Source: Mizuhopecten yessoensis | Lineage: Eukaryota | Assembly (NCBI RefSeq): GCF_002113885.1 | Contig: NW_018407731.1 | Location: 260,863 to 324,862 of the forward strand | Length of the DNA: 64,000 nucleotides | Direction of reading: 5' to 3' | Shown: in pieces, positions 6,443-47,259 of the stretch | Layout of the letters: each line of letters opens with the position of its first letter | How positions within the stretch are numbered: the stretch's first letter is position 1 | The notes under the pieces: generated by a model | Seen by the model: the letters and a program-made list of their open reading frames with translations, nothing else | What the model was told of the DNA's origin: nothing | Databases searched by the model: none | Made by a program: the position numbers and the translations under genes

Positions 6443-7652
6443 ATGGGAGATACTGGTAACCAAGGCGCTAGCACTAGTGCCTTCCCCAATCCTCCCAACT
6501 ACTACAAACAGTACACTGATGAAAATGTGCGACGAGGCCTGGCACCACCACCACCTCCAGCTCTACAGGTAAGACATGTACCTACATGTACCCATATATC
6601 CAGTTCTGCATTTGAAAAAACAACCTGACCCACATATATATTATACAGCTTTACAGTTGAGAAAAAGTGGCCAAACCCACCTGGCATAAAGAGAAATGTG
6701 TGTAAATGTTCCTACCCACCGACTCAGTTTTATAGGTGAGGTGAAGATGTCCTTACTTATCTCCAGCTGTACATGTGTTTGATGGTAACAAAAGAATGTC
6801 CTTTCCTTTGGGGCTGATGAGGGTAATTTCATGTTTTCAACCCAATGGGAAAGTTCTTAAATTTCCAGACATAAAGCTTGTTGAAATTGATTGATATAGG
6901 TCTATCATCAAGAAAATACTCAAGTTAATCTGTGTATATAGTATATACCATCTTCTATTTCAGATGAGAAAACCCATTCCTTCCTCAAGTTTCAATTAGG
7001 TTTAACTATTTTGTAATATGAATGGACCCAGGTATAGAGTTTGATCATTTTTTAATTACATATATATAGCTGCTTTGTCTATTAAAGCCTGTTTTTGTTT
7101 TGTTCACAGGATTCCTACACTATGTTTGGTGCCCAGTACACATCGGAGGACGCTATCATCAGACCACTAGAGTCACTAGGATTCCGACGACTTCATCCAC
7201 AGAACTACGACCATAAACGAGAGCTGAAAAAGCTTAACCATTCCATTGTGGTGAACTTTCTGGATCTCATAGACATATTGATAAAGGCTCCAAACTCTCC
7301 AAAAAGGACAGAAAAGTTGGAGGATTTAAATCTCTTGTTCATTCACATGCATCATCTCATCAACGAGTATCGTCCCCATCAAGCTAGAGAGACCCTACGC
7401 GTAATGATGGAACACCAGAAAAATCAGCGCCAAGAGATCGGAGAACGTTTCAAAAAGCATTTAGACAAAGTGAAGGAGCTGATACAGACTAGCATTACTC
7501 ACCTGTCTGACGATTACAGTTTTGACTCCAAGTCTCTGGTCAAGACGGAACTTCTTCAGGCTGGTCACTCTCTGGGTGATTACAATATGGAGGTAGAGCC
7601 ATGTGACCAGCTGGATCGTATGATGTGCGACATTGTGGACAGCATGAATTGA
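6443..7652 (+). CDS. MED7: Mediator complex subunit 7; coding exons 6443-6568 and 7110-7652 (222 aa)
   Basis: Spliced product [28 protein letters not shown]...PPPPPALQ|DSYTMFG...IRPLESLG...[19 protein letters not shown]...[26 protein letters not shown] has the Med7 hallmark motifs. The intron 6569-7109 is phase 0 (GTAAGA...CACAG). An acceptor AG at 6420-6421 implies an upstream 5'UTR exon. Confidence 0.96.
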
Positions 7653-14385: not shown

Positions 14386-17300
14386 TTAATTGATCATTGA
14401 CCAGCGGTTCTTGGGACCAGACGATGAGAATAGTTGTGTCCGAATGTTGGGCATGGTGAGACTGGAGGACATGGAGTGTCTCGGACTCCGCGGCGCTACT
14501 GGACTAAATGTGATTGGACTATCTGCCTGGGATTTGGAGGAACCAAGTGGGAAGCTTGAAGATAGATTGGACTGCTTCCTCGCCCTTGCAGGACTCTGCC
14601 AACTGAAGGCAAGAAACAAAAGATATGGTATAAAATAATGATCTGAGAATTCATAAAATACTTTTTATCTTAACTGTATTTTAAACTTTTGTGATTAATT
14701 TGGGATACTTTACAGATGGAGAATGTTTTGGCACCAAACTTCATTGTTTATATATATCTATGTAACCCTCAAATCCTAACAGTAACAAAACGCTGTGAAA
14801 GTCTATCTCTTTCTCTTGATGTCCCTGGTGACTTCAGCCGTGTATTATATAAATCAATCTTTCTACTATTGAATTAAAGCAACTTACATTTCTATAGTAA
14901 AATCTGTGAATTAATGCACATTTCCTCCAAATACTTCCTGATGACTCGTACCACTTATTTCCTTTTATGACTGATGACAATCCGGTGTATTTACAACTTG
15001 TGTACATGTATCGAAGTAAAACTACTTACCGTTCTATTCCAGACATATTATAATAATCATAATGTCTACTCTATTCAAGGAAAAAAAACTTACAATTAAA
15101 ATAGTTTGTACCTTTTCCCAGAAGTTACCCTGCAACTAAGTTGAGAAGAGTTTACATGTCCTATATGTAGCTCATGTATATATAATTAACAATCCAAACT
15201 TGTACTTAATCACTATTTTTGATAGAAACAATACATTTGTTTCCTTAAAACATACAGTAGACCATTAGAAGAGACATACTCCAAGTTTTTGATTGGATAT
15301 ATTAGGCCAATAAAATTTGTGTGTTTCAGGTATCCCGACCTACCCAAGATTTTACAGCCGACCCTAGATATTTTATCACCTACTTAAAATAGATCAATAT
15401 ACTAGCAAGGCAAAGTGTACAGCCACTCATTAAAATGTACTTTTAACCTGTTCTGGGAGTCTCACGACATTATTCTAGACAAATTAATAGCCATTGTTAT
15501 GTGTGGAAATGCATTGTGAAAATTTGAAATACCTCCGGTAAATCATAATATTGATTCATGAAAATATATAAATTTCCATTGAAATAAATTATTTGCCTAC
15601 TGACCTGCCCTATTTTTTTCAGGCAAAACCTGAAACAAACATTTTTTGTTTGGCCTAACCCCCCACGCCTCCCTAATTTTGATTAATGTCAATCACCTGA
15701 AGGTGGAGTCAGTGGTGTAGGACAGGACTTGGGTCCTCCACTTCTGTACTGTAGGGTACCGGTCATTATCCACAGAGGCCCCCTCCATGGCCCGATAGGC
15801 ATCCAGGTCAGACTTGGTCGGGCGGTACCTGGATCAAGCAGTAAACCAGTTAATTTTGCTTCCTTGGGATATATTGTACTCCACATATTTGAACAAATAA
15901 GAGAAACTGCCCATTTCAAATTTAAGCAAACCCAACCTACTGTACACCTTTCAGAACCTTACTTTTTTCTACCATTTTTCTTCAAACAACATACGCCTAT
16001 TGTGCGTTTTCTTTCAAATGCAATACATAATGTAGTCAAACTATGTATGACTTCGGAGCTATGTTCTGTGTGAAATCACCAAAAACATTGTTAACTTATT
16101 CAATAACTAAAAAGCTGCATGAAGGGACGAAGGGCTACCAGTTTCTTTCAAATGAATGACCTCCCTCCATATTCAAGATCACAGATGTCAACTGTTTTAA
16201 AAAGCTTTCAAAAACTTCTGAATAACCAAAAGATCACTAGTGATGATATTTGAACGGTATCATACGGGCTATTAAGATTGTTCATATGAATGACCTTGAA
16301 TCACTTTCAAGGTCACATATGGTGAAATGTGTATAAAAGCTTGACATGACCTCACCTGAATGGTGACATTTGGCAAGTTGCATGCGAACATGAAAGGCTA
16401 TAAAGTTTGTTCAACTTAATAACCTGCTAGACTTCAACGTCATACCTGGGGCCAAATGTATTTGAATCTTTTAACATCTTTTGAATGACTTTTAGAATCA
16501 AAGATACTGATATTTTGCCTGTAGCTTTAGTTTAGATCACTTTTAAGGTTACAAGTTGAGATTAATATCAAGTGAGTGATGCAGGCCTATTGGGCCTCTT
16601 GTTTTTAAGTAAGGTTGTCTTTTGATCTATAGCTTCACTAGAAATGCATTTCATAAAGCAGGAACAAGAGATACATGGATATATAATAACTGGCAGCCTA
16701 TTTTTCTTTGATCATGCAACTTGTAGCTCAAATTCAAAATTCAAATATTCAAGATAAGTGAACTAAAAGAACCTACTCCTGGAACTTGAGAAAGATCTGT
16801 GCCATGCATGTAGACTACTGTACTTTATTTACTTTTTGAGAAATAGCAATAACATCCTTGATGGTAAAAGTCAAGATGGCTGCCTGGTGGCCATCTCTTT
16901 TTTCAATCGGACTGAAATGCAACATTCACACCTCCGAAGCAAGAGTAACCAAGATGGATACCACCTGTACGTGAGGAAAAAGCATATTGCACATCTAAAT
17001 ACCACAGTGTATCACCATGATTTGTATTTTTGATTCCGAGATAAGAACTGGACCCCCATGGTCTATTTTTAATTACTGTGACCTTGAATTTGACCTCAGT
17101 GATTGTTAAATCCCTACTCCACATCAACATACCAAAGTGTATCACGTGCACCTTGTCAGATTTTAGAAATATTGGTCTTTTGGATTCAAAGATAAACTCA
17201 GGAAACTAAAGTGTGGATGGTCAGATAGACACATGCAGTGATTACTATAGGGCCTCAGATCGGCACCTGCGTCACTGACACAGGAGCTTAAATATTTCAA

Positions 17301-20300
17301 GATGACTGCCTGCAAACAGCCATATTTTTGTGATCACTTCTAAAATTGAACATCATGCACAACTTAACTACTTATGAAATTTGAAAACAAGAGTACCGCG
17401 GGGCGGACCAATATATGCCTGTTGAATGCCATAATATAGTGTTATATACTTTCTTACATTGAAATAAGACCCGATCATTCTAAGAGTGGTTAGCTGACAT
17501 GTTATAAAATATGCAGAAGAAAATCTCCGAACAAAAAATCAAATACTGAAATGAAGAAAGGGCAATAACTTTTGCAAAAGTCATTGAATCAAAATTCTTT
17601 TCAAGGAAACACAACAACATATCATGATTATTTAGCCTACTAAGTTTCTCAAAGAAATGCTGATTATTTAGCCTACTAAGTTTCTCAAAGAAATGCTTCA
17701 AAAAATGTAGGAGGAGATCTCCAGACAAAAAATCAAATACTGAAATGAACAAAGGGCAATAACTGTTGCAAATAATTGTTGAAGCAAAATTCTTTCAAAG
17801 GAGACTCAACTTCATATCATGATTATAATGTATACCAAGTTTCAAAGAAATCGGTCTAAAAATGTAGGAGGAGATTGACAGACAAACAAAAGTTTATGCT
17901 GGAAGGACAGACAACCCCATACCATAATCCTTCCGTCAAATTTGACGGGCGTATAAAAGGCTCTATCTCTCTCTTTTTCTTATTCTTGATCTCATCAAAC
18001 TATAACTGTAAAACTCTAATATGGCCACCAGGCAGACATTTTGTTCTTACAATCAGTCTCAAAATTGAGCATGCACATCTTGAGACCTAGGGACATCTAA
18101 TAATGAAATTCAGGAAAGGTCACTTAAATACTTTCCAAGATTATTTATGTGATAACAAAATTCAACTGTCAAAAGCCAAGATTGCCATTAAAAGGCATTT
18201 GGCAGCCATTCTAGTCTTCTATCAACCTCAAAATCAAACATGCAGAACGAAGCAACCTACATGTACATTAATTTTGAAATTTGAAAAAGATCCAGGAAGT
18301 AAAATAGCAATAACAATCTCAACCTGTCAAAATCTAAGATGGCCATATGGCAGGTATCTTGTTCTGTCCCAAAATTAAACATGCATAACTAACTAAGGAC
18401 GTAGGGAAACCTACAAAAGAAATTTGAGACAGTTCTGTCTAATATTTCTGAAGAAGTGTTGATATAAAGAACTGTTTAAGGATGGCAGACAGATGGATAA
18501 CATTTGAAAGGCCATTTGAACAGCCCTCCATCCAATAAGTCTTGTGTTTGAACATTTAAGTGACAACTTTTATAACGTATGGACTTGTTTTCAAAGGTTA
18601 TCGTAATAATATTATGATTAAAGTTGATAAACTTATTTGAACACTTGACCATTAATTGTAAGCTAAAATGAGTGAAGAATGTTATTTATATCCCAATTTC
18701 TTAAAATTTTCCTCAAAAGTATATATAAATTTGTGTAAAACTATTTCTATTTGAGAGTGCATATGGTTCAATTCTATGTTATATGTATAACTATAAGTTA
18801 CTTACCCGTGAATGAAGAACATCTTTGATTTGAGACTGTTACTGATGGCCAGAGCCTGTGTGACGTCACGTCCAATAAAATTAAACTTCACATCAATAAT
18901 AGCAGGCAGAGTTGCCTCCATGTCCATACTCTTGTCCATCTCAACCTCTCCATGAATAACCTTGAATGGAATGTCATTGAAAAGGTGCATCTCTGCGACG
19001 CTACAATGAAATGGTATCACAGCTACGTCAGCAATAATAATGTCACGTTTATACAAAGGTTCCTCCTTCAAATCCACAACAATGTCTCGTCGTGTTTGTG
19101 TTGGAGCAGATCTGTAATTACTCACATTCTCCAGATTTTTTCTCTCATTCAAAGTTTCAAAAAGAGATTCAAACACGATTCCTGAAATCTTGTCTCTGTC
19201 CATTTCTAATGTCACATTTAGACGATTGGAGGCATTCTGCCAATCAATGCTAGATCCATCCTCTGATTGGTTCACAACATCCTCCTCTTTCTGCAACTCC
19301 ACCTTCTTTTTGAAATTGTTTGTCAACTCCTTTATGCTCTCGTCAAGTTCGGAGTTATGTGACTGAGTTAATGAAGAGGGATCAGAATCACTCTCCGAGC
19401 CCAATGATGGCTGTTTGCTATTTCTCCAATTCATGTCGGCTTTTGCAGCAGAGGATTCTCTAAGTTTTTCTGATTCAAGTTCCTCTCGTTCGAGTTTTGT
19501 CAAAGGTGGGCGTTTCCAAACACTAACTGGGACATTACTTGGATTAGCAGTTTCCCCTCCTTCATGGGCGGCAATATGTGCATTATAGGTATCATTAGCT
19601 TCCTTAAAGTAAGGAACTTTGCTGTAGGGTTTTGTTGACACATATGAAGCGTCCATAGGGTGATCTCCTGGTGAGGAGATATGCTGGGAACGATTTCCCA
19701 TACAGGATGTACAAGTTATAAACTTTGAGATCCCTCTTGGAGAAGATCGGGACCGATCTAGCAGAGATAGTTTGGCAAATAGAGCTGAGAGACAGGAGAT
19801 GGGACTGCCATTTCCCGCCATGCTGTCAGTGGACTGAAACATGAGATCGCTTCTCTCCATTGACCGACTGAGGAGACCTGCTCGTCCGTAACCGTAACTC
19901 TCACCACTGATGGGGGTACTGTAGAGATTCTGGGTATTACGTAGATAAGAACTCCTCATAGAGGGAGGGGTTCCATTGGTTGCTATGGCGCCACCGCCAT
20001 TTTCTAACTTACATGCATCTCCATTCTGGATTTGAGGTTCTCGTTTTGGAGAATTCAAAATTTCTTCATCCAGATCAATGGAGTCAAAATCATTTTCATG
20101 ATCAGAGCTTTCCAAGTCTTTCTCCACTTCTTCTCTCAAGGCTAATAGATTCCATGACAAGTTACTATACTGGCTTATCCCAATGTCAGTTCCTGTTCCA
20201 TTGGCATGGTTCATGGCTAATAGGTCAAGTTTCTCTATACCATCAGCAATACAGAGAGCAATTCTTTGTTTCTGGAAATACTCCTCCAAAAGGTCAAATC

Positions 20301-23300
20301 CATCTTCAGAGGAAAGGTCGGCATAAGTTTGTAGGAACTCCCAGTACTCAAGCCAAGGGATCTGCATCTGGTGGGCCAAGTCTCTGTTGTCATGGGAAAA
20401 AGTGGAATTAAAACATACATCATACTTGGTCTTTCCAAAATAAACTGGATTCTTATTTTAAATTGTATAAACATTGTGTTAACACTTATTAACATTATGT
20501 TCTATCAAATACATTGCTACCTGTAACTACCATCTCATGATACAACATCTCAATAGGGATAAACCCATATTGTATGGGGCAGGTCAGGGTGGCAATTGTA
20601 ATTGACATTATATTGGTGGTGGTGTCTAAAATAATTGTTGACATTTATATAGTGGGCCAGAAAATAATAATTGCGGGTGGTGAGGACCAGTCAACTTGAG
20701 TTTGATGATGTTTTCTTTACCTATCTGTATACCAAAAAAAAATCACTTTCTTGTATCATCCCTATCACCTATCATGTATGTACCGTTAAGAATATTTTTC
20801 ATTTGTGTGAAAATTTAAACTAGTTGTATCAATCAACCTAATACTAACCGGCCGAGGCGTTCCATGCCTTTGTCACTGTCCTCGCGCCGGGTAATGACAA
20901 ACTTCCTGCGGATATAATCGGAACTTCCACTGGGAGGTGTGGTCCACTGTTTGTGGAACTGCTCAGCCTGAAATACAACCAGAGGTCTAAATGAAAGTAC
21001 AACCACTAACTTGCCAATGTTTCCTGTCTACAATATAAAACTGAAAGATTACCTAGACTATGTGGCCAATGTTTCCTATCATTACCCTTATGAAATGGTT
21101 ACTTGGAACCAAGTTTTTATTATCAAATAATTGCAGATTATTACATTTTACCAGCGAATTATATCAAAAATATTTTACATCAACATGAAGAATTTTTAAC
21201 TGTTACGCTATGATTTGTTACCCAAATCACCATGAACATTGAAATTTGTGTGTAGATTTTTTTTTCTCTTATTATGCACTGTTCTGGTTTCCAAATATAC
21301 ATTCCATGTCGCTATATGTCCCTACAGTTCCTGAGTATATCAGGAGACATAGCCCATGTATTATTTTATTAACAAGATGGCCATCAGCACCAAATCGCTC
21401 ACCTGGCTAATTTTGGAGTGAGGTTGAAATCAACCCAATAAATTTGAGAGGAAAGCCCCCCCCCCCCAAAAAAAGAGACAATTTGATAACTTTTGGCCTT
21501 GCCTCAGCCCCCACCCCAGGATGTTCAGTCCATTATTTGTAAAACTTTTGATCCCCATTGACTATGAATGCTACTGCAACATGCAACAATTTGGTTGAAA
21601 CTTTTGGAGGTGTCATTTGAAGCAAATCTGCCCAATTGCCCCTCAAACCCTTTGAGAATTAGTCCCATTACTTGCATACTTTTGATCCTCGTGGCCACCA
21701 AATTTTGATTGATCTGTTTAGAAGTATGGGAGAAGTCATATAATACAAAATTTTACAGACAATACATGATGGACAAATGGCAATGGATGACAGCTGACGT
21801 CGGACGAAGCACCACCATATAACTAGCTCACTGTGGCACTTTATACCAGGTGTATCATAAATATAGCTAAAATAGACTTACTCTTGAAGGGGTCATAGGT
21901 CCTGCACATGCCTTAACTGCCATCAGAGGATCCTTAGGACTCCATGAAGAGAACGGAACATTCATGGCAGGGTTCTTACTGTCAGGTGACCAGGGTGGAC
22001 CAATCACAGGCTGTGTTGTGTTATCTTCGGACCTGACCAGTGGCACATAATACTGACCTAAAGAAATAGAAAATTCTTTGGTACATTTACTTTTAAAGGC
22101 CAATGAAGAACCCTCTCTGAAACTGCAATGGGTCACATTTTATGAAAGTTCATATCCACAACCAGTGAAATGTTTGTGTGATGTTGCGATGACTCATATG
22201 TTATTTGGTTCGTCACCTTCATCAGACAATGACCAGTTAAGCATGAAAATTTCACTGATTGGCTTTATAAACTTGTAGACAATCTATTCTCTCACCCTTC
22301 TCAGGTGTGTCTCCTGTTCTAGCCAGGAAAGATCAGCTTGTCACCCACTAGGGGGAGACAGCTTCGTGTCGATTAGCTTGTGTGCAATTGTGACGTCATT
22401 AAAATATAAACCAAGGTCATTTATTTGAATAAACTTGGTAGCCCTTCATCTCGGCATGCTACTGGCCAAATATCATCACCCTAGGCCTCTTGGTTATTCA
22501 GAAGAAGTCATTTAAAGGTTTTAAACATATTTGACCCTTGTGACCTTGAATATAAATCAAGGTAATTTATTTGAACAAACTTGGTAGCCCTTAATCCAAG
22601 CATGTTACTGGCCAAATATCATCACGCTAGGCCTCTCAGTTATTTTGAAGTCGTTTAAAGGTTTTAAACATATTTGACCCCTGTGACCTTGAATATAAAT
22701 CAAGGTCATTTATTTGAACAAACTTGGTAGCCCTTCATTTCAGCATGGTACTGGCCAACTATCATCACATTAGGCCTCTTGGTTATTCAGAAGAAGTTGT
22801 TTAAAGGTTTTAAACATATTTGACCCCTGTGACCTTGAATATAAGTCAAGGTCATTTATTTGAACAAACTTGGTAGGCCTTCATCCCAGCATGTTACTGG
22901 TCAAAGACCATCACCCTAGGCCTCTTGGTTATTCAGAAGAAGTTGTTTAAAGATTTTAACATATTTGACCCCTGTGACCTTGAAAATGGTTGAAGGTCAT
23001 TTATTTGAACAAACTTGGTAGCCCTTCATCCCAGCATGGTACTGGCCAACTATCATCACATTAGGCCTCTTGGTTATTCAGAAGAAGTTGTTTAAAGGTT
23101 TTAAACATATTTGACCCCTGTGACCTTGAATATAACTCAAGGTCATTTATTTGAACAAACTTGGAAGGCCTTCATCCCAGCATGTTACTGGTCAAAGACC
23201 ATCACCCTAGGCCTCTTGGTTATTCAGAAGAAGTTGTTTAAAGATTTTAACATATTTGACCCCTGTGACCTTGAAAATGGTTGAAGGTCATTTATTGAAC

Positions 23301-26300
23301 AAACTTGGTAGCCCTTCATCCCAGCATGCTTCTGGCCAAATATCATTACCCTAGCCCTTTTGGTTACTGAGAAGAAGTTGTTTAAAGTTAAAAAAAGGTG
23401 ACGCCGGACGGACGCCGGACGGACGCCGGACGCCGCACCATGCCATAAGCTCACTTGGCCCTTCGGGCCAGGTGAGCTAAAAATGTATCACCAGTAATTG
23501 TGACATCATTAAAATGTATCACCAGTAATTGTGACGTCATCAAAAGTGAATGACGATATGCATACCCCACATGTGTTTTCCTTTACAAACATGGCAGACT
23601 CTCGTGGAGTTGTGACTGAAATAATAGGATGGGCGAGAAATAATCATTCTCTACCTTAAGGGTGTAACAGAGAAATCTCCAACCCGCGGGCGTTTTATTT
23701 TGGTTGCCCAACCCTCGGCTCTCAATGAAACCACTGATATTTCCCCTCATTTGCCCTATGCTTCATTTGGTAAAACAATAGTATTCACCATGGTAAAATA
23801 TTTATCACTTTGGTCCAACTCTAGTTTTGTCCAAATTCAAAATTAACAAAGTTTGGTCCCCTTGGCCCAAGGATGCTCCATACAAAATGTTGTCAAAACC
23901 ATTTATCTGTTCTAGAAAAGTTGCCCTTTAACAAACAGGTGGCAGTTGGATGATGCATCACATAATAAGCTCATTTGCCCTTTGGACCAGTTGGTTAATG
24001 ATACTGTACCCTCTAGTAATTCTTTAATTTCATCCTTCAAATTTTCTTCTGGTTTTGAACATCTACTGCAAATCACCTGTCAAAACACAGAAACAGTGCT
24101 AATTAACAGGCACAGATACTTTTTGCAAAAAATAAAGATATATCAAATATTAAACATCTTAACCCTTAAATGCAGAGTACTGCTTATTGTAACCTGAGTT
24201 CAGGAATGATCAGGACAGGTTTTCAAACAAACTATGACTGTTATACTCCTACATTCACTCTGACCATTTAGATTTTCATTGAAATTTGGCTGTCATTTAC
24301 ATCTGAGGCAGTCTAAGCACTGCAGTTACTAACCTCTTAGGCAGTCTGACCACTGTTGCTACTTACCTCATAAGCAGTCTGACTACTGCTGTTACTTATC
24401 CCTGAGGCAGTCTGACCACTGCAGTTACTAACCTCTGAGGCAGTCTGACTACTACTGTTACTTACCTCTAAAGCAGTCCGACCACTGCTGTTACTTCCCT
24501 CTGAAGCAGTCTGAACACTGCTGTTACTTACCTCTAAAGCAGTCTTACCACTGCTGTTACTTACATCTGAGCCAGTCTGACCACTGCTGCTACTCACCTC
24601 TAAGGCAGTCTGACCACTGTTGCTACTTTCCTCATAAGCAGTCTGACTACTGCTGTTACTTATCCCTGAGGCAGTCTAACCACTGCTGTTACTTAACTCT
24701 GAGGCAGTCTGACCAATGCTGTTACTTACCCCTGAGGCAGTCTGACCACAGCAGTTACTAACCTCTGAGGCACTCTGACCACTACTGTTACTTGCCTCTG
24801 AGGCAGACTAACCACTGCTGTTACTTACATCTGAGCCAGTCTGACCACTGCTGTAACTTACCTCTAAGGCAGTCTGAGCACTGCTGTTACTTGCCTCTGA
24901 AGCAGTCTGACCACTGCTGTCACTTACCTCTGAGGCAGTCTAACCACTGCTGTTACTTAACTCTGAGGCAGTCTGACCCCTACTATCACTTACCTCTGCG
25001 GCAGTCTGACCACTGCTGTTTCTTACCTCTGAAGCAGTCTGGCCACTGCTGTTACTTGCCTCTGAAGCAGTCTGACCACTGCAGTTACCAACCTCTGAGG
25101 CAGTCTGAACACTACTGTTCCTTACCTCTGAGGCAGTCTAACCACTGCTGTTACTTAACTCTGAGGCAGTCTGACCCCTACTATCACTTACCTCTGCGGC
25201 AGTCTGACCACTGCAGTTCCTAACCTCTGAGGCAGTCTGGCAACTACTGTTACTTACCTCAGAGGCAGACTGACCACTACTATCACTTACCTCTGAGGCA
25301 GTCTAACCACTGCTGTTACTTAACTCTGAGGCAGTCTGACTACTACTGTTACTTACCTCAGAGGCAGACTGACCACTACTATCACTTCCCTCTGAGGCAG
25401 TCTGAACACTACTGTTCCTTACCTCTGAGGCAGTCTAACCACTGCTGTTACTTACATCTGAGCCAGTCTGACCACTGCTGTAACTTACCTCTAAGGCAGT
25501 CTGAGCACTGCTGTTACTTGCCTCTGAGACAGACTGACCACAGCTGTTACTTGCCTCTGAGGCAGACTAACCACTGCTGTTACTTAACTCTGAGGCAGTC
25601 TGACTACTACTGTTACTTACCTCTCGGGCTGTCTGGCCACTACTGTTACTTACCTCTGAGGCAGTCTGACCACTACTATCACTTACCTCTGAGGCAGTCT
25701 GGCCACTACTGTTACTTACCTCTGAGGCAGTCTGGCCACTACTGTTACTTACCTCTGAGACAGACTGACCACTGCTGTTACTTGCCTCTGAGACAGACTA
25801 ACCACTGCTGTTACTTACCTCTGAGGCAGTCTGACCACTGCTGTTACTTACCTCTGAGGCAGTCTGACCACTGCTGTAACTTACCTCTAAGGCAGTCTGA
25901 GCACTGCTGTTACTTGCCTCTGAGACAGACTGACCACTGCTGTTACTTACCTCTGAGGCAGTCTGACCATTGTTGTTACGTAAATTCCGGTCTACTTTTG
26001 GGTGAGACACAATCACAGAAACAACATCCTTGTGTCCAAACTTACACGCAAAGTGTAACGGAGTTTCACAGTTCTGAAATACATACAGATACATGTACAT
26101 GTGTATTTTTACTAAAGAGACAAACAAGCAAGCTTGCCAACTCTCCCTGTTTTTGAGGGATACGCCTGATTTTGGACCCTTAAATAGAACATTTTCAAAA
26201 AGAATTTGCTTAACTATTCCTATTTTATAAGATCTGATGATTTCATCTGAACAGCAAAAAATAAAACTGTAAGTTAAAGGCTAACTAATACCCCCGCTCA

Positions 26301-29300
26301 TATATAAACCAGAACTGTAAACTAAAGGCTTACTAATACCCCTGCTCCTATATAAACAAGTGTTATATTGTCCCTAGGGTGTACATACACACATTTTTGT
26401 ATTCTTTTAATTCAGAGTACGTATAATCTTCCCCATGAAAATATTAAAAAGCTGGCAATTATGAACATGATATATACCCCTTTGTCTGGAGTGTTGAGGT
26501 ATAGGTCCACCACAAAGTTGATTCTGTTGGTGCGTGTCAGCTGTGTTTCCTTGGTGTGTGCATAAAGCTTATCAATCAGGCTAGGATCCTCTAGTGTATC
26601 CAGGATAAGTTGACACATGGCCGCTTGGTTACTCTTGGCCGCTACGTGGAGAGCATTGTAGCGGGCACTTTCCTGAGATATCAATACAGTAAAGAATGAA
26701 TTATCTCTCTATATATATTTATTCACTATATATATATTTATTCTCTATATATATATTTATATATTTATTTTCTATATATATATTTATAAGAAAAAAGTAG
26801 TCTTTGAAACATTTGATGAATAATGTAAAAAATAAGTTTGAAAATTGCTCTCCTCAAGCAGTTCCTCATCATTCCTCCTGAAGATCCTTGAAAAGGGTAA
26901 AATATCTATAGAAGACAGCAGTTTTCAAATTGTTTTGGACTAGATATTTAAACATATTGTTTCAAATTCACCTATGAACATGTACCTAGTACAATAACAT
27001 ACTGGTATTATATGTTTATAAAAAACAATTTGACTGAAGATAATATAACCTCACTGCATTTGAAGGTTCATCCACTACTTTTATTAACAATTTTTATTTA
27101 TCAATTCACTTTGATACACATTCTTAGGGTCACAATCTAAAGATGGATTTTTTTTCATTAGAAACAGCCTTTAGCTCCAAGCCAGCTGAAGGGATATACT
27201 TTAAAATCAGCATAAAAGTTCAATGGTAACTGTTTTTCTCAGTTTTATTTTTTTTGTGGTGTATATGATTATTTTTTCGGTTGCATATATTTTTGTATGT
27301 AATTGTTTTATATACACTATATTTTCTCCGTTGTATATATTGTGATATTCAATTGTTCCATGACTGTGTCTTGATAAAGCGGCAGATTGCATCGAAGATT
27401 TTATTGTTCACAATGTTGATATTACTTCTCTGCTTACATATCTATTTATGCATTCAACAGACATTAGTTTGTGCCCATATTGCAGTCAAATGTCACCCAG
27501 CTTTACCCCAACTTTAATCTTGTTAACCCTATGGTAAGAATGTTAGCAACCCACACAGATTCTATGATAACTGTGTATCCTCATGATCAGTCACAAGGTA
27601 TCGGGTACACAAGTGAAATGTTCTCCAGGTAAATTTCATAATGCTGTTAATTCAATTGCAAACAGGAACAAGATAAGTGACACATGTAGCAATTTTAAAA
27701 GCTAAGTAAGATTAGATATAAAAAGAACAACAGTTGACAGAAAGGAGACATTTTGTCCTCTTTACCTGTAGGATAGTGGGAGTGTCACCACTGCTGATCA
27801 GCATTCGAGGGTTTTCCCAGAACATGTTTTCTACCACTCTACATTCACCCTGCTCTATCCTTGTCCTAAGTACAATTAACTCTTGTATCTTTGGAGCTTT
27901 GTAGGGACAGCTCTCCACACTTACTCCAGGGGTCAGCTCACCAGCAGTCTGGTAAGTGAAAATCAAATGTAAACACCAAAAGAAATACATAGAAAGCTGC
28001 TAACCACAAATATGTATATTATAAATTGGACACTAATTTTGATGCTGTACTTTAATAATTTCTGTGTAGCAACATTGGTAAAGTGTACACTGAAGGATTT
28101 GCAATGTAAAGATCATGAGTTAGAACCCTGCAGTATTTTCTTTTCTTTATATTGTCATACATTCAAATTTCAAACAACTGCAATTCTGTAAAATATTTCA
28201 CAGTAGCTACAACATGGTAAAAATATACATAGTTAAACTTGTTTGTAGCCCTTACCTTAATTAACTTGTCATGAGATGCTAACTTGTTGGTAGCCCTTAC
28301 CTTAATTAACTTGTCATGGGATGCTAATTACATGTTGGTAACCCTTACCGTAACCCTTACCTTAATTAACTTGTCATGGGATGCTAATTACATGTTGGTA
28401 ACCCTTACCTTAATTAACTTGTCATGGGATGCTAACTTGTTGGTAGCCCTTACCTTAATAACTTGTCATGGGATGCTAACTTGTTGGTAGCCCTTACCTT
28501 AATAACTTGTCATGGGATGCTAACTTGTTGGTAGCCCTTACCTTAATAACTTGTCATGGGATGCTTCCTATTTATTTCATGTTCAGAACTTTTTTTAGAA
28601 GCTATTTTGGGAAGACTTAAATCATAACATCTCTTGAATTTCCTTAACTCTAAATACACGGGGTATGCTATTTTCTGTTAAAATGATCACTTAGTCCCCA
28701 GTATAATGTTTTTGGATAAAATAGCAAAGTGTCCCTTTCAGGGTCGGTTAAACCTGATAGAGTGAGCTCCACCACCCAGCTGGAGGTTCAGTGAAGTTCA
28801 GTGTACCCAAGGTTGGTGGATTCCTCATATATGTTTTAATGGAATTCACTTCAGCAGGGGTAATAATCTAGGGTATGTAAATATCAGGATGACCTCAACA
28901 ACATCAACTGAGGTGTATTTCTAAAGTTAATCCAAGTTTACGTGTTTCTTTCCAGTAATTATATATCAGTGGGCAATTGTCAGAACATAACTAAGACTTT
29001 GATTTTACACCGTAGTATAAAACACATCAATATTTCACTAAACATAATACCAGATATAAGGTTAACCCATTGCACATTTTGGATTAGGAATATTAGGAAT
29101 TTGTACACAATTAAATTTAGAGTCAATGAATGTAATAAATAAAGATTTTATCAATAAACATATGTATTACTTTTGAGGGTGTACTAACGCCTTCTAACAT
29201 TTATTATTGTCGTTATATGTATAATAACAGTCAGTAAACAGACCATTTGAAAACTTTACCTTTGACCCCTTTTTCCATGGAGAGTTGACATCAGCAGAAT

Positions 29301-31992
29301 TAAGGGAAAATTCATCAGCTTCCGACTTTGATTTGAACACCTTGAAACGTGCCCCAGTATATTTCTTCACTGATTTTAGGGCCGAGTCTTTATCAGTAAA
29401 GACGAAGCACTGATCTGTGAATAAATCAAGCAAAAACTCTAAAAGAAAACCTTTCGCTATCTTGCTGGGGTACAGATATTTCAGTATCAAGATGTTTCAG
29501 TACTTCACAAAAATCCTTTCAATATTTTATGATATTTTCGACACTTAGCCAAACATTTTAAACTTTTGCCTGTGCTCAATTGTTGAGACCTATATGTTGC
29601 TGTTTTTATTAGTTCTTAAGTATTTTTTGTCTCGACAAAAAATAACAAAATGTCCTTTTCCTAGGTACAAAAACTACCAGGTGCCAAAATTATCCCTTGC
29701 CCCCTCCCCTAACACACACTGTAATAATTTAATTGCAAAAAAAGAAATTGGGCTGGGATGAACTTATTTTGATGTTGTCTTTTTATTGTCATATTCCCTT
29801 TTTCTCAATCAATCCTTGTGTTTATTTTACAGTGTTGTTTTTGTTTATATCTTTCTTGAATATTTCGATTAATATCTCAAGTTTCTTAAAATCAACCTTT
29901 TAGATATTGGAGTAAGTGGTAGAAATTAGTGTTGGGAATTGGTTGAGATTTCAACATTGATGATCGGATATAATCGGTTAGTGTCAACTGATCAATTTTC
30001 GATTATTAATCGGTAAGCCTACCGTTTCATAATCCTTCAAAAAAAAATTACTCTTTATTTAAAACAATGACATGGCTTTTTCTTTTATTATACTACTAAT
30101 GAAATTTTAACTTTTCCGCATAGTTTCCTATCTTTATTTTTTATCATATCATTTCAACATAACAATCTTAATTGATGAACAGTTAACATTTATTTATTTT
30201 TTGCAATTAATTATGTTTACATAGCATGATTGGTAAGAAGTTATAGTTAAGAGTAAAATGACATAGAACTCCCGTTCTCTATTAGTGAAAATGAAAGTAG
30301 AACTTGCACTTCCGGTTTTGAAAACAATCATCAATGTTGACATTTCATAATCGATTGTCGGGAATTGGTTGTCTTTCCAAATAGATATCGATTATAATGG
30401 ATCATCGGGACAACACTAGTAGAAATAACTATCCTAAATTTGCTTTCAATGAAATGCCAACTTCTTGAGATCAGACTGTTGTGATATTAGCATTATTTAC
30501 CGGTATTTAAATTTCTCAACATATAATTGCTGGCTTTATCATTTTGATTTATTGTCATTTCCACTAAAATGTTATCTTCGTTATTTGTAATTATTTTAAA
30601 TCAAACTTTCAGGCTGTAGAAGTACAAGTTGTGTGTTTGCATTGATTTTCAAGCTCTGCATTTCCCTAACAACGTCCATGATCTGGGCCCCTCACAAAGG
30701 TCTGAAATCGGTCATGTCAGCTATCAGGTTTCTGGTCTTGTGTAATGGTATCACCTTATAATTATAAGATGACTACTTAGTCTCACTGGGGCCAGTTGTG
30801 CTATATTTATAACAGTAAATAAGTATTTTCCCCAGGAACTTGAGGGAGAGTTCGAGGCGAGCACTGATGATCTTGCTTCTTTATATATATGAAAGATTTT
30901 TTATTCTCAGAGCCACCAAGAGGGTAGCATGATATGGGCACTGTGTGCTTTCCCTTCTGAATCCGCCACTGGGAGTCCCATCAAGGTACTGGCCACAGGT
31001 ATTGTGAGTTTCATCTACTGCCAAAGTCTGACTCGTCCTTAAATGACCATAGCTGTTACTGTATACTGGGACACTTTCACTCAGTCAAATATTTGCCCTT
31101 TTCTGAGAAAAATACCATGTTTGCCCATTGTTAATTGCGCATACATGTACCAATAGCTATATATTACAGGTTGTAAAGTAAAATTTGCTGTCATAACAAA
31201 TCTGCTCTCATTAGGGTGGGTGAAGAAGGCGAAAGTTAAACTGTGGCGAAAATTTCACAGTATACAGTAAACAAAACCAAATCCTTCCCACTTGTTTGCA
31301 TGGAAAGCTATATACTGGGACATTTTAAACAGAAATAGGGGAAATATATGACTCATTCCATAGAGTGCTATGATGGTTTATCTTGACAAGCTAATGTGAT
31401 TAAAACAATACATTCGGATTGTCACCATAGATAGAGCATCAAAAAAATCAATAAAAACATGAAACAGTAAAGGCAATGAAGTATGATTCAACAATGAACA
31501 ATCAATAATCCTATGGCATTACAATATGTGTTCACCTTCAATCTCTTCTTTACTGACAGTGGCAGGTAAACTGACTCCATAAAAATGAGATGCCTCTAAA
31601 TTTATCTGGGCTATTTTGATTTCGGTGTCTTCAGTTTTTTCACCCTGTGAAACACTTTTTGAACTGGCCACACCGTCCGATAAATCTGATGATGAATCTG
31701 GCAAGGGGTTGTCTGGTTGGAAAGGGGTCCTATTAACACATTCAGTTTTGCAACTGTCACTCCCTTCATCTTTGCCTCCTGACAACGAACAAAGTCGTCT
31801 GCCATCAACGGATGTTTTTGAGTCGGTGGTTAACGTCGTTTGTTGGGATGCAATGATTTTTCTTACCAACCGTTTTTGAAAAAGCGCAATCGTGGTCCGT
31901 AAAATAGGTCCGACAGTCTCTCCGTGTTCCTTTAATTGCGTCCTCAACTCGTCTGCACTGAGTGTTTTCACCTGGTCTAAAATATCCTCCAT
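14386..31992 (-). CDS. ANKLE2: Ankyrin repeat and LEM domain protein 2 (LEM4); exons 31992-31536, 29414-29260, 27948-27766, 26672-26478, 26073-25951, 24076-24010, 22057-21882, 20967-20849, 20383-18806, 15828-15697, 14602-14386 (3402 nt, 1133 aa)
   Basis: N-terminal LEM domain (LSADELRTQLKEHGETVGPILRTTIALFQKRL) is followed by GARFKVF, WENPRMLISSGDTPTILQ, ankyrin repeats (RYNALHVAAK, YLNTPDKG, ETPLHFACKFG), YYVPLVR, AGPM, DKGMERLGRDLAH, PWLEYWEFL and the C-terminal FIHG.RPTKSDLD...W.SP motif, all recognisable ANKLE2 blocks. All 10 introns are GT-AG with matching phases. A small missed exon cannot be excluded. Confidence 0.94.
15305..15655. mobile_element. MITE with GGCC termini (PIF/Harbinger-like)
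   Basis: TIR GGCCAATAAAATTTGTGTGTTTCAGG against its inverted counterpart at the right end; flanks TTA/TAA; same family as 33737-33961. Confidence 0.7.
21371..21872 (+). mobile_element. Degenerate HINE-like element (further partial copies at about 16100-16604 -, 17385-17958 +, 54011-54523 -, 60665-61020 +)
   Basis: AACAAGATGGCC...ATCGCTCACCTG start and TAGCTCACTGTGGC...CCAGGTG...AGCTAAAA end. Confidence 0.6.
22405..23484 (+). mobile_element. HINE/pearl-like element (5'-truncated), seven ~146-bp internal units
   Basis: Same central repeat as 926-1893; GACGCCGGACG microsatellite; 3' hairpin AGCTCACTTGGCCCTTCGGGCCAGGTGAGCTAAAAA. Confidence 0.85.
24289..25983 (-). repeat. 33-bp minisatellite (~50 units) derived from the ANKLE2 exon 5/intron 5 junction
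   Basis: Sense-strand unit GTAAGTAACAGCAGTGGTCAGACTGCCTCAGAG. Confidence 0.96.
28245..28566. repeat. ~44-48-bp minisatellite x7 in ANKLE2 intron 2
   Basis: CCCTTACCTTAAT(T)AACTTGTCATGGGATGCTAACTTGTTGGTAG repeated. Confidence 0.93.
29927..30418. mobile_element. hAT-type MITE in ANKLE2 intron 1
   Basis: TIR TAGTGTTG/CAACACTA with perfect 8-bp TSD GTAGAAAT (29919-29926, 30419-30426). Confidence 0.88.
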
Positions 31993-33168: not shown

Positions 33169-36100
33169 ATGAGTAACTATGAGAGATTTGACTCGGATCG
33201 GGGTGAGCCTGAGGGGGCAGCTGAAATTGATGTCACTACAGCGGAAGGTAGAGAGAATAAAGATACACACATTCAAGTTAATGACCCTGCGGAGGAAGGA
33301 CAAGTGACATTCTATGAATCGGATAACAAAGCCGGTTTAGAATATGTTGATGATCCTGCCCAGTCTGTTCAACTTACTGGATTGAAGTAATTCTAAATTT
33401 TTCATCGTGTAGGCATAATACAATAGATCACTGCCTTAATATACTTTAATAAAATCCAGAATTCGGATTTTATAAATGATGCAACATTTCTGAGGTAGCA
33501 GTATACAGTAGCCTAACGTGACCATGGGTGATATTTTTGTACAGTGATCGAATAGCCACTGTAATATAACATGTATCAACAAATATTTATTTAATCAGCA
33601 TTAAAATTGGCATATACATATATATGATGAAGTGGACTATGTGGGCTTTATAATTTTTCAAGAAAAAAATACTGCATTTGGTTTATGAGCACAGTTTTGG
33701 CCATTTACAAACCTGTGTCTACACAGCAAAAGCTTAGGCCAGACAAAAATATTTGTTGTTTCCGGTAACCTTACCTACCCTAATTTTGTGTGCCTACCCT
33801 AAACTTTTTTTAGGCAATTTTCAAAGAGGCACTGTTAAAGTCAAGATCACTCTCCTATATAAACCATATAAAATCATTTGTTAAAAAAAAATTGTTACCA
33901 TACCTACCTACCCTAAATTTTTCCAACAATGTTTCAGGAAACACATATATTTTGCCTGGCCTTAGCTTTTTATGTAGTATATTTTTGAAATTGGCACATG
34001 ATTAAATATTGTGCAAAATCCACCAGATGGAGCTATGCTAAAAAGTGAGTATTTCTGTTACTGAGCAGGTGATTTGTAATTTTGAGACATGGTTTAAGGG
34101 GATTAAAAAAAAATGATGGGGGTCAAATTTAGGTTACTTAAGTCTTTTTTATGTAGATTCCTTGTGAGGCATGTATGGCAATTATTGAATATAAATTTGT
34201 AACTAGTTTAGAATATTAGCACTATGTTGTATTATATATGAGTCCTATTTAGTAGCTGATTTGTCTGCATACTTATGATTTGTCTATTTACCCTCAGACT
34301 CATTCAGTCCAAGTTCAAGGCTGTCATTGAGCATATCTTATTCCGCCTCCTGACTGTGGTTTTGATCCTGTTGGATTTGACCCTGACCATTATTGGGCTG
34401 GCTAACACAGACAGTGCCAGCAGTGGCTTAGAGATTGTCTCCCACTGTATCATCACCTATTTCCTACTCGAGGTGGCAGCACGCATATTTTATCTGGAGT
34501 AAGTTAATGTCAGTTGGTATTTACTAAAAGTATTAGAAATTACATTTAATGTTCGCTTGCATGTATTTTCCGCTCTTTTTATGAAGTATCAAAAAGATTG
34601 CCCAAAACCAATTATTCAAAGGGTGTTGATCATTTGAAGCAATGTAAATGTTATCTATTATAGGTTGTATACAAAGATACTTTTATCACATCTATCAGAG
34701 AGATTCCTATGTGAAAGATACACATCTCATTTTACTCCAAATCGATCATTGAAAAAGGTTTACAGTGTAAAACTATCAACGTTTTGAATAATCAGCTTTA
34801 AATTATCAATCAAATGGAATTGTTTTATTCTAACCTTAGCACCCTGAAACACCAATTCAACGTACCAAAGATATGTTCAAAATTCTCCTTTGTATATAAC
34901 AAATGATTTATCAATAATCGGTATCAATCAATATTTACTGTTGCTTTATCTTTGACATTGGAACCCTGAAAGATATAAACTCGTTTGAGTTATTCTCATA
35001 CTTGAAGTTTGTGTAAAATTTTATAAAAATCTCTTTTGAAATGCATCTGCTACAGTGAGGACGGACAGTGAATTCACTCTCATTCCTACAATAACTGTTG
35101 ATGATGATATCAATGTTAATTTACAGATAACTTATCCAACTTACCTTTCATATGTTTGTCTTAAAGTGAGTTTCCTTGTTTTAATTTCTTTGCAGGCGGC
35201 TATTTTTCAGCAGTATCCTGGACATGGTTGATGGAGGGGTAATTGTTGTATCCTTTATCCTAGATATGGTATACATTGGTTTGTCATCAACTGATCAAGA
35301 CATCGATTATATCAGGTAGGTCCTTCATCATTACATTTCCCATGCTATGGGGTTTATATGTGGATTAAGTAACAAGATTTTTGGGTGTATGCTAGAATCC
35401 CAGCAAACTTTTGGGGCTATGTTTATACTATCTGTCTGTCCATCTGGAATCTGGCCAGTTATTGGTACACAGTATACATGCATGTATGCATGTTTAAATA
35501 CGTTTTTCTATGAAATGTTACCTTGACAACTTGCCACTTATTTACCTGGTAAGTTTGTAGTTTTAGACTTGATAGCTTTATAGACTTGTGAGACTGTTAA
35601 TCAAGTATAAAATTATACTACATGTATTGTGAAATTGACATAGGGTACCGTAGTGAAACAAATTCAGCCTAATTTTGTAAATTCTCAAATGAAGGATGGA
35701 GATTTGAAGGTTAAATATGCTCTTGTCAGTTTACAAGGTGGATGGCAATGACCTTCAATTGTCAAAATACCTTGTACTGCATGTACCTTACCACTTTATA
35801 TGTTACTGCATAAAAGTAGGACCAGACCATAGGCTTTGTTGTCTCTCAGGCCACTGTAAAACTTTAATGAGGGAGTAACCAATGTCTGAAATATAACTTG
35901 TAAATTGACATAGATTGTAAAAATACTAAATCCAGTGACACTTTCATCATTTGTTCCATTTTTATTTTCCACTTGGTCTCCCAGACATTGTTATGATAAA
36001 GATTTATAATGATTTAACAAGGTTTTCTGACTGTGAATCTAGATGAAAGAATCTAATCAACTGCCAACTTGTCTTGGAATCAATATTTTTATTACTAAAA

Positions 36101-39100
36101 TCATCAATTTCAAGGTTATTGTAATATTGGATGTTGTAGGTTGGTTGTGATTGGTCGAGTGGTGAGAATTATCAGAGCATTGAGAGTTATCTACCTTATG
36201 GTACAGCAACGGCGACACGTTGCGACAGCTTCCCGTCGTGTTGTGTCCCAGAACAAGCGGCGATACCAAAAGGATGGGTTTGATCTGGATCTGTGCTATA
36301 TTACAGGTAAACTCATTGCTTAAGCTTGATTACAGCATTTACAGTGTAAATAGACCATTTATGTAGCCAAACACCTTTAACTCATTCATCCCTGAAGACA
36401 CATTTGGGCTCTTCCAATTCACAGGTTGGTATAGTTTATTATGGAATATCAGGGATGAATGAGTTAATTAACTAATTTATATAAGAATATGAAATAAAAT
36501 GATAAAAAGAGCTGTTGAAAAGATGGCTTGGGTAGAATGTTATATGAAAATATTTGTTTCTATAATATATTACAAAATATAATTAATTACCAAGTAGAGT
36601 ATCATTGCAAGAGACAAGTTTTCATCGATTGAATCATATACTGTAATTTACATAATTTCAGAAAAAAGCCTTCGTCATTATGGAAATGCTAAAACTGATT
36701 TTAATTTTCCAGAGAGAGTGATTGCTATGTCATTTCCATCTAAAGGGATGATGGCAATGTATAGGAATCCAGTAAGGGTGAGTTAATTAACAGTGACTCA
36801 GAAATTACTGTCTATCTGTCAGGGTGAGTAAATTCATTTTGACTCAAAAATAACTGTCTATCTGTTAGGGTGACTAAATTCACTTTGACTCAGAAATAAC
36901 TGTCTATCTGTCAGGGTGAGTTATTTTACTATGACTCAGAAAGTACAGTTGTATAGTCAGAGCGAGTTGATCACCGACTCAGAAAGTACAGTTGTATAGT
37001 CAGGGCGAGTTGATCACCGACTCAGAAAGTACAGTTGTATAGTCAGAGCGAGTTGATCACCGACTCAGAAAGTACAGTTGTATAGTCAGAGCGAGTTGAT
37101 CACCGACTCAGAAAGTACAGTTGTATAGTCAGAGCGAGTTGATCACCGACTCAGAAAGTACAGTTGTATAGTCAGAGCGAGTTGATCACCGACTCAGAAA
37201 GTACAGTTGTATAGTCAGAGCGAGTTGATCACCGACTCAGAAAGTACAGTTGTATAGTCAGAGCGAGTTGATCACCGACTCAGAAAGTACAGTTGTATAG
37301 TCAGAGCGAGTTGATCACCGACTCAGAAAGTACAGTTGTATAGTCAGAGCGAGTTGATCACCGACTCAGAAAGTACAGTTGTATAGTCAGAGCGAGTTGA
37401 TCACCGACTCAGAAAGTACAGTTGTATAGTCAGAGCGAGTTGATCACCGACTCAGAAAGTACAGTTGTATAGTCAGAGCGAGTTGATCACCGACTCAGAA
37501 AGTACAGTTGTATAGTCAGAGCGAGTTGATCACCGACTCAGAAAGTACAGTTGTATAGTCAGAGCGAGTTGATCACCGACTCAGAAAGTACAGTTGTATA
37601 GTCAGAGCGAGTTGATCACCGACTCAGAAAGTACAGTTGTATAGTCAGAGCGAGTTGATCACCGACTCAGAAAGTACAGTTGTATAGTCAGAGCGAGTTG
37701 ATCACCGACTCAGAAAGTACAGTTGTATAGTCAGAGCGAGTTGATCACCGACTCAGAAAGTACAGTTGTATAGTCAGAGCGAGTTGATCACCGACTCAGA
37801 AAGTACAGTTGTATAGTCAGAGCGAGTTGATCACCGACTCAGAAAGTACAGTTGTATAGTCAGAGCGAGTTGATCACCGACTCAGAAAGTANCACGAGCT
37901 CATTACTGTTGAATTCTTATAGAGTAAACTCCAATAAATTTTTTACTGTAAGTAGACATTTTATTGTAGAGTCAGTGTTGTATTTCATAGTCCACCAGTG
38001 CTCAGTATTATGAGTTAGATTGGAATTTGTTTTGATATGCATTCCAGTAATTTTTGCACCAGAAACGACAAAAGATATTAAAGTGTACTGTTCATATACC
38101 AAAGCTCATAATGGCATTCATAATTACGTTCTATTTTTAGGAAGTGGCAAGATTCTTTGATGAAAAACACAAGGACCATTACAGAATTTATAACCTTTGC
38201 AGTAAGTTTAGATTTATAACATTTCATGGGGCTTCATAACATTTTGTTTGTTTGCCAAAGGCAAAAGTCACAAGAGTTGTAATCAAAAATATACTCCTGC
38301 ATAGGTCAGTATGCCTGAGGTCAGCTTTAGGCTGACAGTAGTAGCTTGGTGGGGAATTGAAACGCATACATTTGTTACCGTTACCGTCCCTGCCAATATC
38401 TGGAGTAGCGCCACCTATCTGTGGCATAGCGAAGCGGCGAAAGAACACCAGAAAATGATGGCTTCCATTCATGAGCAGGGTCTGAACTGGTATACATGTG
38501 AGATTTGAATATACAAAATATAATATTAAGCTCTCCCTTTGTGGGGCTACAGGTGTACGATCAGAGGTATTTAAGGATGAAGGACTTCAAATATTATGAT
38601 TTAAAAGCAATTAAAGAATGATGGTACTGATGCTGATATTTTCTACATTTCAGGTGAAAGAGATTATGATGAGGAATTGTTCCACAACAGAGTGGAACGT
38701 GTTTTCATAGACGATCACAATGTCCCCAGACTAAGGTAACTTTGTAATACAGGTATCTACCAACTATAATTGAAGGGTATCTTTAACAGCTGAATGCTTT
38801 AATAACAGTCATATTGGTATTTGAAGATGTGAAAAAAAGAAAATTGCATGTAAATGTTTGTATTGTCAGCAAATACTCATGTGTAGAATCCACATAAGTT
38901 TTAACATAAAAAATATATATCGAAAATTTGAAATGATTTTTCTTTTTATTCATTGACAGTGAGATGGTAGATTTCACTGCTAATGCACGAGAGTTTATGA
39001 ACCAGGATCCACAGAATGTGATAGCAATCCATTGTAAAGGCGGCAAGGGTAGGACGGGCACAATGATATGTACTTGGCTCATTGACTGTGGCTTGTTTGA

Positions 39101-46804: not shown

Positions 46805-47259
46805 GGAGGGTTGCTGACCAAGGGAGGATTTCTGCCCAGCCAAAGGAAGGTTTCAGACTGGGGGGTGGGGAGGGGAGAGGAGAGGATGGCTACGGGAGGC
46901 TTTTTTTACTTAAGAGATTGAGATTTGTTTAGTGATGAAGACTTCTTACTGAGTGAAGTATCTTTGTGAGGGAGGGTTTCAGAGTGAGGTATCTAACTGA
47001 GAGGGGGTATCTGACTGAGTGAGTTATCTATGTGAGGGAGGGTTTCAGAGTGAGGTATCTAACTGAGAGGGGGTATCTGACTGAGTGAGGTATCTTTGTG
47101 AGGAAAAGTTTCAGAGTGAGGTATATAACTGAGTGAGGTACAGTATCAGAAGTTGCTTATGAGGAAGAGATTCTTGGGATTTCCTTTGAGGCTTTGAAGT
47201 CAACATGCCTATATTTAGTACACAGGTGGCTTATTAGCCTGGGAGGCTGTGCTTAGGAC

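Follow-up and report, generated by a model that had tools for sequence, protein, structure and literature searches.

The donor site of exon 5 in the ANKLE2 gene of the scallop Mizuhopecten yessoensis lies at the head of a 33-bp tandem repeat in which the exon–intron junction has been copied about fifty times, and the main mRNA is made from the first of these donors, at position 25950 of the window (the whole 64,000-nucleotide stretch of DNA analyzed here). The array is a junction-spanning minisatellite with a large copy number, and repeats of this type have been described before in human genes and in lancelets. We consider it probable that the repeat was built from the junction itself, that its first donor is the one used, and that the later copies are silent, decaying neutrally and spliced out with the intron. 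The anatomy of the array, the identity of the gene and the use of the donor at 25950 are shown by the results below; tests for selection, which are weak, gave no signature of it.

The array and its host gene

Translation of the ANKLE2 model with the donor at 25950 gives exactly the RefSeq protein listed in Table 1, and a protein search with exon 5 led to this record and to the GenBank entry OWF45782.1, both from M. yessoensis. Pfam searches of the window exons identified LEM in exon 1, Cauli_VI in exon 2 and an ankyrin match in exon 5; together with the third domain of ANKLE2 (ANKLE2_3rd), which was found on the Pecten protein (87% identical to the scallop ANKLE2), these follow the order of an ANKLE2/LEM4 orthologue. 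Exon 9 shares 89% identity with the ANKLE2 protein of Pecten maximus. The host gene is therefore ANKLE2. The GenBank model OWF45782.1 (812 aa) begins in intron 4 and, unlike RefSeq, is without exons 1–4; the joining of exon 4 to exon 5 in the contigs described below is contrary to that model. Two further repeats were seen in the gene. Intron 2 holds a 44/60-bp repeat (28290–28565, minus strand) with a donor-like AAG/GTAAGG in every unit (the slash marks the junction), away from the modelled junctions, and intron 4 holds a high-copy dispersed element (26202–26397) over which contig depth reaches thousands in all four runs aligned.

Table 1. Features of the ANKLE2 exon 5–exon 6 region, in window positions.
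Feature	Position	Strand	Description
ANKLE2 coding span	14386..31992	-	11 exons, 10 GT-AG introns, 1133 aa; identical to XP_021363036.1
ANKLE2 exon 5	25951..26073	-	123 nt, phase 0, aa 331–371; second ankyrin repeat and next hairpin
Exonic repeat template	25951..25983	-	last 33 nt of exon 5; 29/33 match to the unit consensus
Authentic donor GAG/GTAAGT	25945..25953	-	first intron base 25950; sole donor with observed use
50 full units	24301..25950	-	33 bp each, indel-free, 39 distinct
Units 1–4	25819..25950	-	in frame, stop-free; candidate donors after them at 25917 (GC), 25884, 25851 and 25818, predicted gain 11–44 aa
First in-frame TAG	25798..25800	-	in unit 5
Partial unit GTAAATGACAGC	24289..24300	-	12 nt, preceded by GAT; likely original intron start
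Non-repeat intron 5	24077..24288	-	212 nt; closed by the acceptor AG at 24078–24077
ANKLE2 exon 6	24010..24076	-	67 nt; frame shift if skipped

TRF reported the array at 24289–25979 with a period of 33, 51.2 copies, 84% matches, 0% indels and a score of 2304. Read on the minus strand in a donor-first register, it consists of the full units of Table 1 followed by the partial unit, and with this tail it takes up 1662 nt of intron 5, which is 1874 nt long. An initial annotation had described an in-frame amplification of about fifty-fold over the exon 5 donor, with the last 33 nt of the exon resembling the unit, and both features are borne out by these results. The units differ from their consensus at a mean of 3.0 positions and from one another at 5.3 on average, with divergence climbing weakly toward the 3' end (rho 0.27, P=0.054). 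Within the 50 units no clear higher-order periodicity was found, the one higher-order structure being a single near-identical block (units 14–16 versus 33–35), and no 31-mer of the reference array occurs more than 5 times. No other copy of the unit was detected within the 64-kb window with up to 7 mismatches allowed, and one unit, sought as an exact string among metagenome contigs, had 0 matches. A masking RNA structure was likewise not found: the exon end plus six units folds no better than chance (z=-0.88).

A donor is rebuilt at each join, from the end of one unit and the start of the next. Counting the authentic site, there are 51 donor positions, with GT at 34, GC at 7 and other, dead dinucleotides at 10, and GAG/GTAAGT stands at 20 of them; the 50 extra positions hold 33 GT, 7 GC and 10 dead sites, 19 being exact copies of the authentic 9-mer, so that the splice signal is repeated in many of the units and not in all. 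Three of the stop-free copies share the authentic 9-mer letter for letter. The four stop-free donors, the TAG behind which all later donors lie, and the first base of exon 6 were all found where the initial annotation had located them. It had also predicted that each added copy would read VSNSSGQTASE, which is true of unit 4, while units 1–3 encode VSNSSGQSVSE, ASNSSAQTALE and VSYSSGQTASE.

Stop codons occur in 10 of the 50 units (5, 12, 16, 20, 25, 31, 35, 39, 49 and 50), and on this ground a reading of the array as a coding repeat was rejected. Synonymous changes are also not in excess: they make up 8 of the 42 distinct alleles, where 21 of 99 possible changes would be synonymous (P=0.85), so that the array does not behave as a coding repeat kept by selection. 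At the donor G and T, 7 and 10 of the 50 units depart from consensus, while an average position has 4.5 such units; taken over all 9 nt, the donor varies slightly less (3.9 per position) than do the other 24 positions (4.8). When the order of the units is shuffled, the first stop comes no earlier than unit 5 in 40% of cases. None of these results on donors, codons or stop position points to selection, and the tests are weak because the units share a history and are not independent. The authentic donor itself matches the donor consensus at 8 of 9 positions, and has the top score among the 23 real donors of the window.

An assembly artefact was considered and rejected, as the array contains no N and the variant letters in four other runs match alleles of the array. 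Over units 3–4, 10 of the 11 variant letters listed in these runs are alleles of other units, and the array is therefore also carried by other individuals.

The exon sequence at -33 to -22 (TTACGTAACAAC) and the intron sequence at +1 to +12 (GTAAGTAACAGC) match at 9 of 12 positions. A slipped-strand or unequal-exchange duplication of 33 bp, seeded by this match and amplified later, would produce the arrangement seen. The partial unit at the far end is like the consensus at 10 of 12 positions, and likely represents the old intron start. The final full unit closes with GAT; the corresponding codon specifies Asp in three other scallops and Glu here. The 3' end of the array may therefore keep the older junction, and this is a hint only because 4 of the 50 units end in GAT. 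The frame-keeping period would be a one-in-three coincidence, and the array would drift like ordinary intronic minisatellite DNA.

Donor use in transcripts and the protein at the junction

The gene is present in 20 of 23 listed runs (12 studies), which are kept as contigs and one of which is recorded as RNA. Logan contigs of four runs from four studies (X4, X6, X14 and X18), three of them not on record as RNA, were aligned on positions 25786–26700. This stretch comprises exon 4, exon 5 and units 1–5, with exon 6 and the distal units outside it; contigs of this kind lose minor isoforms, and those built on 31-letter words cannot span a 33-bp array. In all four runs one contig joins exon 4 to exon 5 (26478 to 26073), covers exon 5 with 0 differences, matches until 25949 and then continues elsewhere. 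The end of the match corresponds to the exon end at 25951 plus a GT common to exon 6 and intron 5. The contig measures 5736 nt in X4 and 5583 nt in X14, of which 4588 and 4406 nt, respectively, lie beyond exon 5, where the coding remainder is 2289 nt.

The remaining two contigs are shorter, and their ends are informative. That of X18 stops 28 nt past exon 5, i.e., 28 nt into exon 6, which, if 31-letter words are assumed, is where a path from the unspliced 3' end of this intron is predicted to join the exon; the merge lengths predicted for the 50 unit donors are 11–27, 29 and 30, and none equals 28. That of X6 stops 69 nt past exon 5, where exon 7 and intron 6 part ways under the same assumption. 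From these two ends, which fit to the base, the contigs are deduced from their lengths to carry the splice from 25950 to 24076. RefSeq XP_021363036.1 and GenBank OWF45782.1 both read GQTASE-VICSR, the product of the donor at 25950. The regular mRNA is thus made from the most upstream donor, as seen in the contigs of all four runs and in two database gene models, and the first head-to-tail unit of the array spans a real exon–intron boundary, as given by the RefSeq protein and the contigs.

Low-level use of later donors is compatible with the contig data, minor forms being dropped. A leaky, unregulated series of donors, with a small and steady amount of splicing from the proximal GT copies (25884, 25851 and 25818) or from the GC copy, would yield minor forms with 11–44 aa inserts and some substrate for nonsense-mediated decay (NMD), with no selected function. 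The identity of three stop-free copies to the authentic 9-mer fits such leakage, as does the reported use of proximal pseudo-sites in IFI6 and CBS (PMC1557585) and the retention of one ABCA7 unit at 2 +/- 1% (PMC5954066), a level of the kind that would be invisible in contigs. Against it, the main contig of all four runs passes the fork between exon 5 and unit 1 and every merge point predicted for units 1–4, the nearest copy (25917) is GC, and in F7 copies identical to the authentic site are reported to stay silent (PMC1557585). We regard regular leakage of this kind as unlikely; it differs from silent copies in degree, and a leak of a few percent fits both. No unit-bearing protein was present among the four scallop ANKLE2 proteins in 26 matches to a query of exon 5 plus units 1–4, which is weak evidence, the search having covered longer proteins only with 8000 candidates scored.

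Contig depth over the array itself was of mixed value. In the bin 25910–25940 (units 1–2) it was 0.16, 0, 0 and 0 in the four runs, and in the bin 25972–26002 it was no higher than over bases specific to exon 5; one extra X4 contig fits 25969–25940, a part common to array units. The low cover over units 1–2 was set aside as evidence, as unique parts of intron 4 are nearly uncovered too and the contig sets therefore drop short connectors of low depth. Short contigs (59–91 nt) from other units stack on units 3–5. The depth of these array-derived contigs over 25786–25900, compared with that of the mRNA contig, was 21.1 versus 15.3 in X14 and 30.3 versus 36.8 in X6, more than the 31-mer multiplicity of the reference (at most 5) readily explains. 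This depth could come from longer alleles, from slow splicing, or from unspliced RNA or DNA.

An indirect effect, in which the cluster of copies able to bind U1 slows the removal of intron 5 or promotes skipping of exon 6 in a length-dependent manner, is the least probable of the readings weighed here: the depth of array-derived contigs in X6 and X14, the unspliced 3' end of intron 5 implied by the X18 contig end and the rise of ABCA7 exon 19 skipping with VNTR length (PMC5954066) favor it, but the X6 contig end implies intron 6 as well, so that unspliced RNA or DNA suffices and the array need play no special role, depth summed over contigs is not a good measure, and the 5.6–5.7 kb contigs of X4 and X14 are unbroken.

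Three ankyrin repeats, together about 170 aa long, are described for ANKLE2 (PMC13179284), and in Drosophila its ankyrin domain is reported to bind PP2A (PMC11835388). The scallop junction E371/V372 follows the Pfam ankyrin match, and the initial annotation had placed any insert after the ankyrin repeat; in an alignment to designed ankyrin proteins, however, these residues fall on the next repeat, the capping one, at its hairpin and first helix. The junction thus likely lies inside the ankyrin domain and not after it, a placement that follows from the sequence alignment and the general ankyrin fold. Among the 148 representatives with a match (150 examined), the span from G366 to C374 is 9 aa in 146 and that from H337 to C374 is 37–38 aa in 145, and inserts of 11–44 aa at this position are, on these alignments, without evolutionary precedent in the 148 ANKLE2 relatives. 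Two relatives (P0277 and P0279) are longer at the junction position, by 3 and 29 residues. These look as if the donor of the same intron had been read through, which suggests that the intron position is old, and they may equally be gene-model errors.

Comparison with known and neighbouring junction repeats

The 37-bp VNTR in intron 7 of human F7 is, like the ANKLE2 array, described as having its first unit over the exon/intron boundary and identical donors downstream, with only the most upstream donor seen used (PMC1557585). Its units number 5–9, each contains 4 exonic nt, and its donor is of middling strength (PMC1557585), in contrast to the 50 extra units, mostly exon-derived letters, frame-keeping period and strong donor of ANKLE2; length polymorphism and mutational proof of scanning are available for F7 alone (PMC1557585). 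Even improved F7 copies are reported not to compete unless perfect, and the same source gives LMNB2 and PDGF, with F7, as cases in which the authentic donor alone is used, while in IFI6 (6-16) and CBS two proximal copies are used too (PMC1557585). The 31-bp unit in CBS intron 13, written c.1444_1467+7(16_21) (PMC2630376), consists of 24 exonic and 7 intronic nt (PMC1557585) and so is close to the ANKLE2 unit in make-up, but its period breaks the frame, unlike the 33 of ANKLE2. The initial annotation had likened the array to CBS, and the analogy holds insofar as two pseudo-sites are used there (PMC1557585). CBS and IFI6 (both human, the IFI6 repeat being in intron 2) thus differ from ANKLE2, whose contigs show the first donor. 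A substitution in the second CBS repeat reportedly prevents multiple alternate splicing, to go by the title of a study. The GC of the second ANKLE2 donor recalls this, and proves nothing, because the chance that the second donor would be something other than GT is 17 in 50.

The 25-bp VNTR in ABCA7 intron 18 also starts at the donor and permits unit retention, but its units break the frame, and its length is reported to track downstream exon skipping and expression (PMC5954066). A splicing-regulatory tandem repeat (spl-TR) of the ABCA7 type is one whose length is tied to a change in splicing or expression (PMC10078293, PMC5954066). Invertebrate counterparts are the amphioxus "mirage" minisatellites, which like the scallop array are tandem exon–intron boundaries in a marine invertebrate, may lie on the donor or the acceptor side, include some dead signals and keep regular splicing (PMC3087553, PMC3902484). 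They are described in Adh3, the globins BflGb6/9, troponin C and PGBD5, with length and somatic instability reported; the host here is a mollusc and the copy number 50, compared with 3–6 in the BflGb6 mirage (PMC3087553, PMC3902484). A literature search in the bivalve, scallop and oyster scope, with few subscription papers and no supplements, had no junction-spanning case from a mollusc among the papers listed; none of 15 listed out of 4,214 papers mentions ANKLE2, which is a weak negative.

Several mirages per genome region have been described, and the scallop region is similar in that two more junction repeats lie in the neighbouring gene, TPTE2. This gene, of the voltage-sensing phosphatase type (33169–46810, plus strand), is head to head with ANKLE2 (31992, minus strand), the two starts being ~1.2 kb apart; its model has 14 coding exons and 13 GT-AG introns, and encodes 543 aa with 88% identity to the Argopecten protein. 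A 46-bp repeat of 3.7 copies (36775–36942, plus strand) begins from the donor whose first intron base is 36778, and recreates AGG/GTGAGT at 36824 and 36916 and AGG/GTGACT at 36870. Its period is not a multiple of 3, and junction repeats therefore need not keep the frame. Adjoining it is a 43-bp array of 22 copies (99% identity, 36933–37891), which stops at a single N (37892), leaving the length of that array uncertain. On the acceptor side, a degenerate 26–27-bp repeat (46490–46692, plus strand) with several earlier pyrimidine-AG copies ends exactly at the last acceptor, 46692, as an acceptor-side counterpart. Across the ANKLE2 and TPTE2 spans, 3 of 14 arrays touch a junction, an enrichment that is not significant (null mean 1.13, P=0.10).

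Other repeats and genes in the window were recorded in passing. Most of one TPTE2 intron is filled by a 20-bp repeat of 115 copies (42728–45029), which gives rise to long, spurious Cys/Tyr-rich open reading frames on the minus strand. Related 145–146-bp tandem repeats occur at 1055–1894, 22403–23387 and 55343–56207, two of them with 70-bp arrays or short GC-rich repeats alongside, and we take these to resemble the dispersed satellite-bearing elements of bivalves. An exon of MED7 lies at 7086–7652 (plus strand; Pfam Med7, E 1e-44), and an exon at 58791–59420 (minus strand) resembles IF3_C weakly, with a score that does not reach the Pfam cut-off.

Splicing of the array and its significance

The array is likely a tolerated repeat of an already known type and not a regulatory switch. 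The upstream donor would win because it is met first, is as strong as any copy and yields the normal 123-nt exon, as described for human F7 (PMC1557585), a case from mammalian cells and not from molluscs. Splicing that leaked to one of the 46 positions behind the TAG would produce an mRNA with a stop at codon 422, six junctions lying downstream. NMD would clear such an mRNA if molluscs follow the usual rule, and this would be a side effect rather than a designed switch.

It is improbable, and more so than simple leakage, that heat or other stress, or long alleles, pull splicing off 25950 to the 30-odd strong donors and that array genotype thereby sets the dose of ANKLE2. In this reading the first four donors would add 11–44 residues, and the rest would lead to NMD, skipping of exon 6 or retention of intron 5. 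The initial annotation had raised a tuning of isoform mix and NMD-based dosage by the array; we consider very improbable a version maintained by selection, in which the proportions of full-length, insert-bearing and NMD-bound forms depend, perhaps under stress, on how long the array is and where its first stop lies. The period is a multiple of 3, the 50 units are indel-free and four stop-free donors precede the first TAG, as such a mechanism would have it; heat is reported to activate latent donors in human cells (PMC3510495), and inserts in a domain that binds PP2A in Drosophila could matter (PMC11835388). However, donors, codons and stop position bear no signature of selection, the length of the junction is nearly invariant among 148 relatives, and no gene model or protein match contains a unit. 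Unit retention in ABCA7 is reported not to change with array length (PMC5954066), and F7, the closest worked case, is described as using the first donor alone (PMC1557585). Were genotype to act in this way, it would determine how much of a PP2A/BAF regulator is made in a species that is farmed, and length-dependent regulation, if shown, would be of importance to scallop genetics and to the study of how splicing control evolves, though nothing here points in that direction.

Under the preferred reading, that of silent copies decaying within the intron, the array is most likely one more clean case of a tolerated junction repeat, in which a donor has been copied fifty-fold at no visible cost. As far as the literature was searched, it extends "mirage"-type repeats to molluscs. 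It also offers a natural test of first-donor choice outside mammals: the three copies identical to the authentic donor are stop-free, any use of them would therefore not be masked by NMD, and M. yessoensis is well represented in public RNA data.
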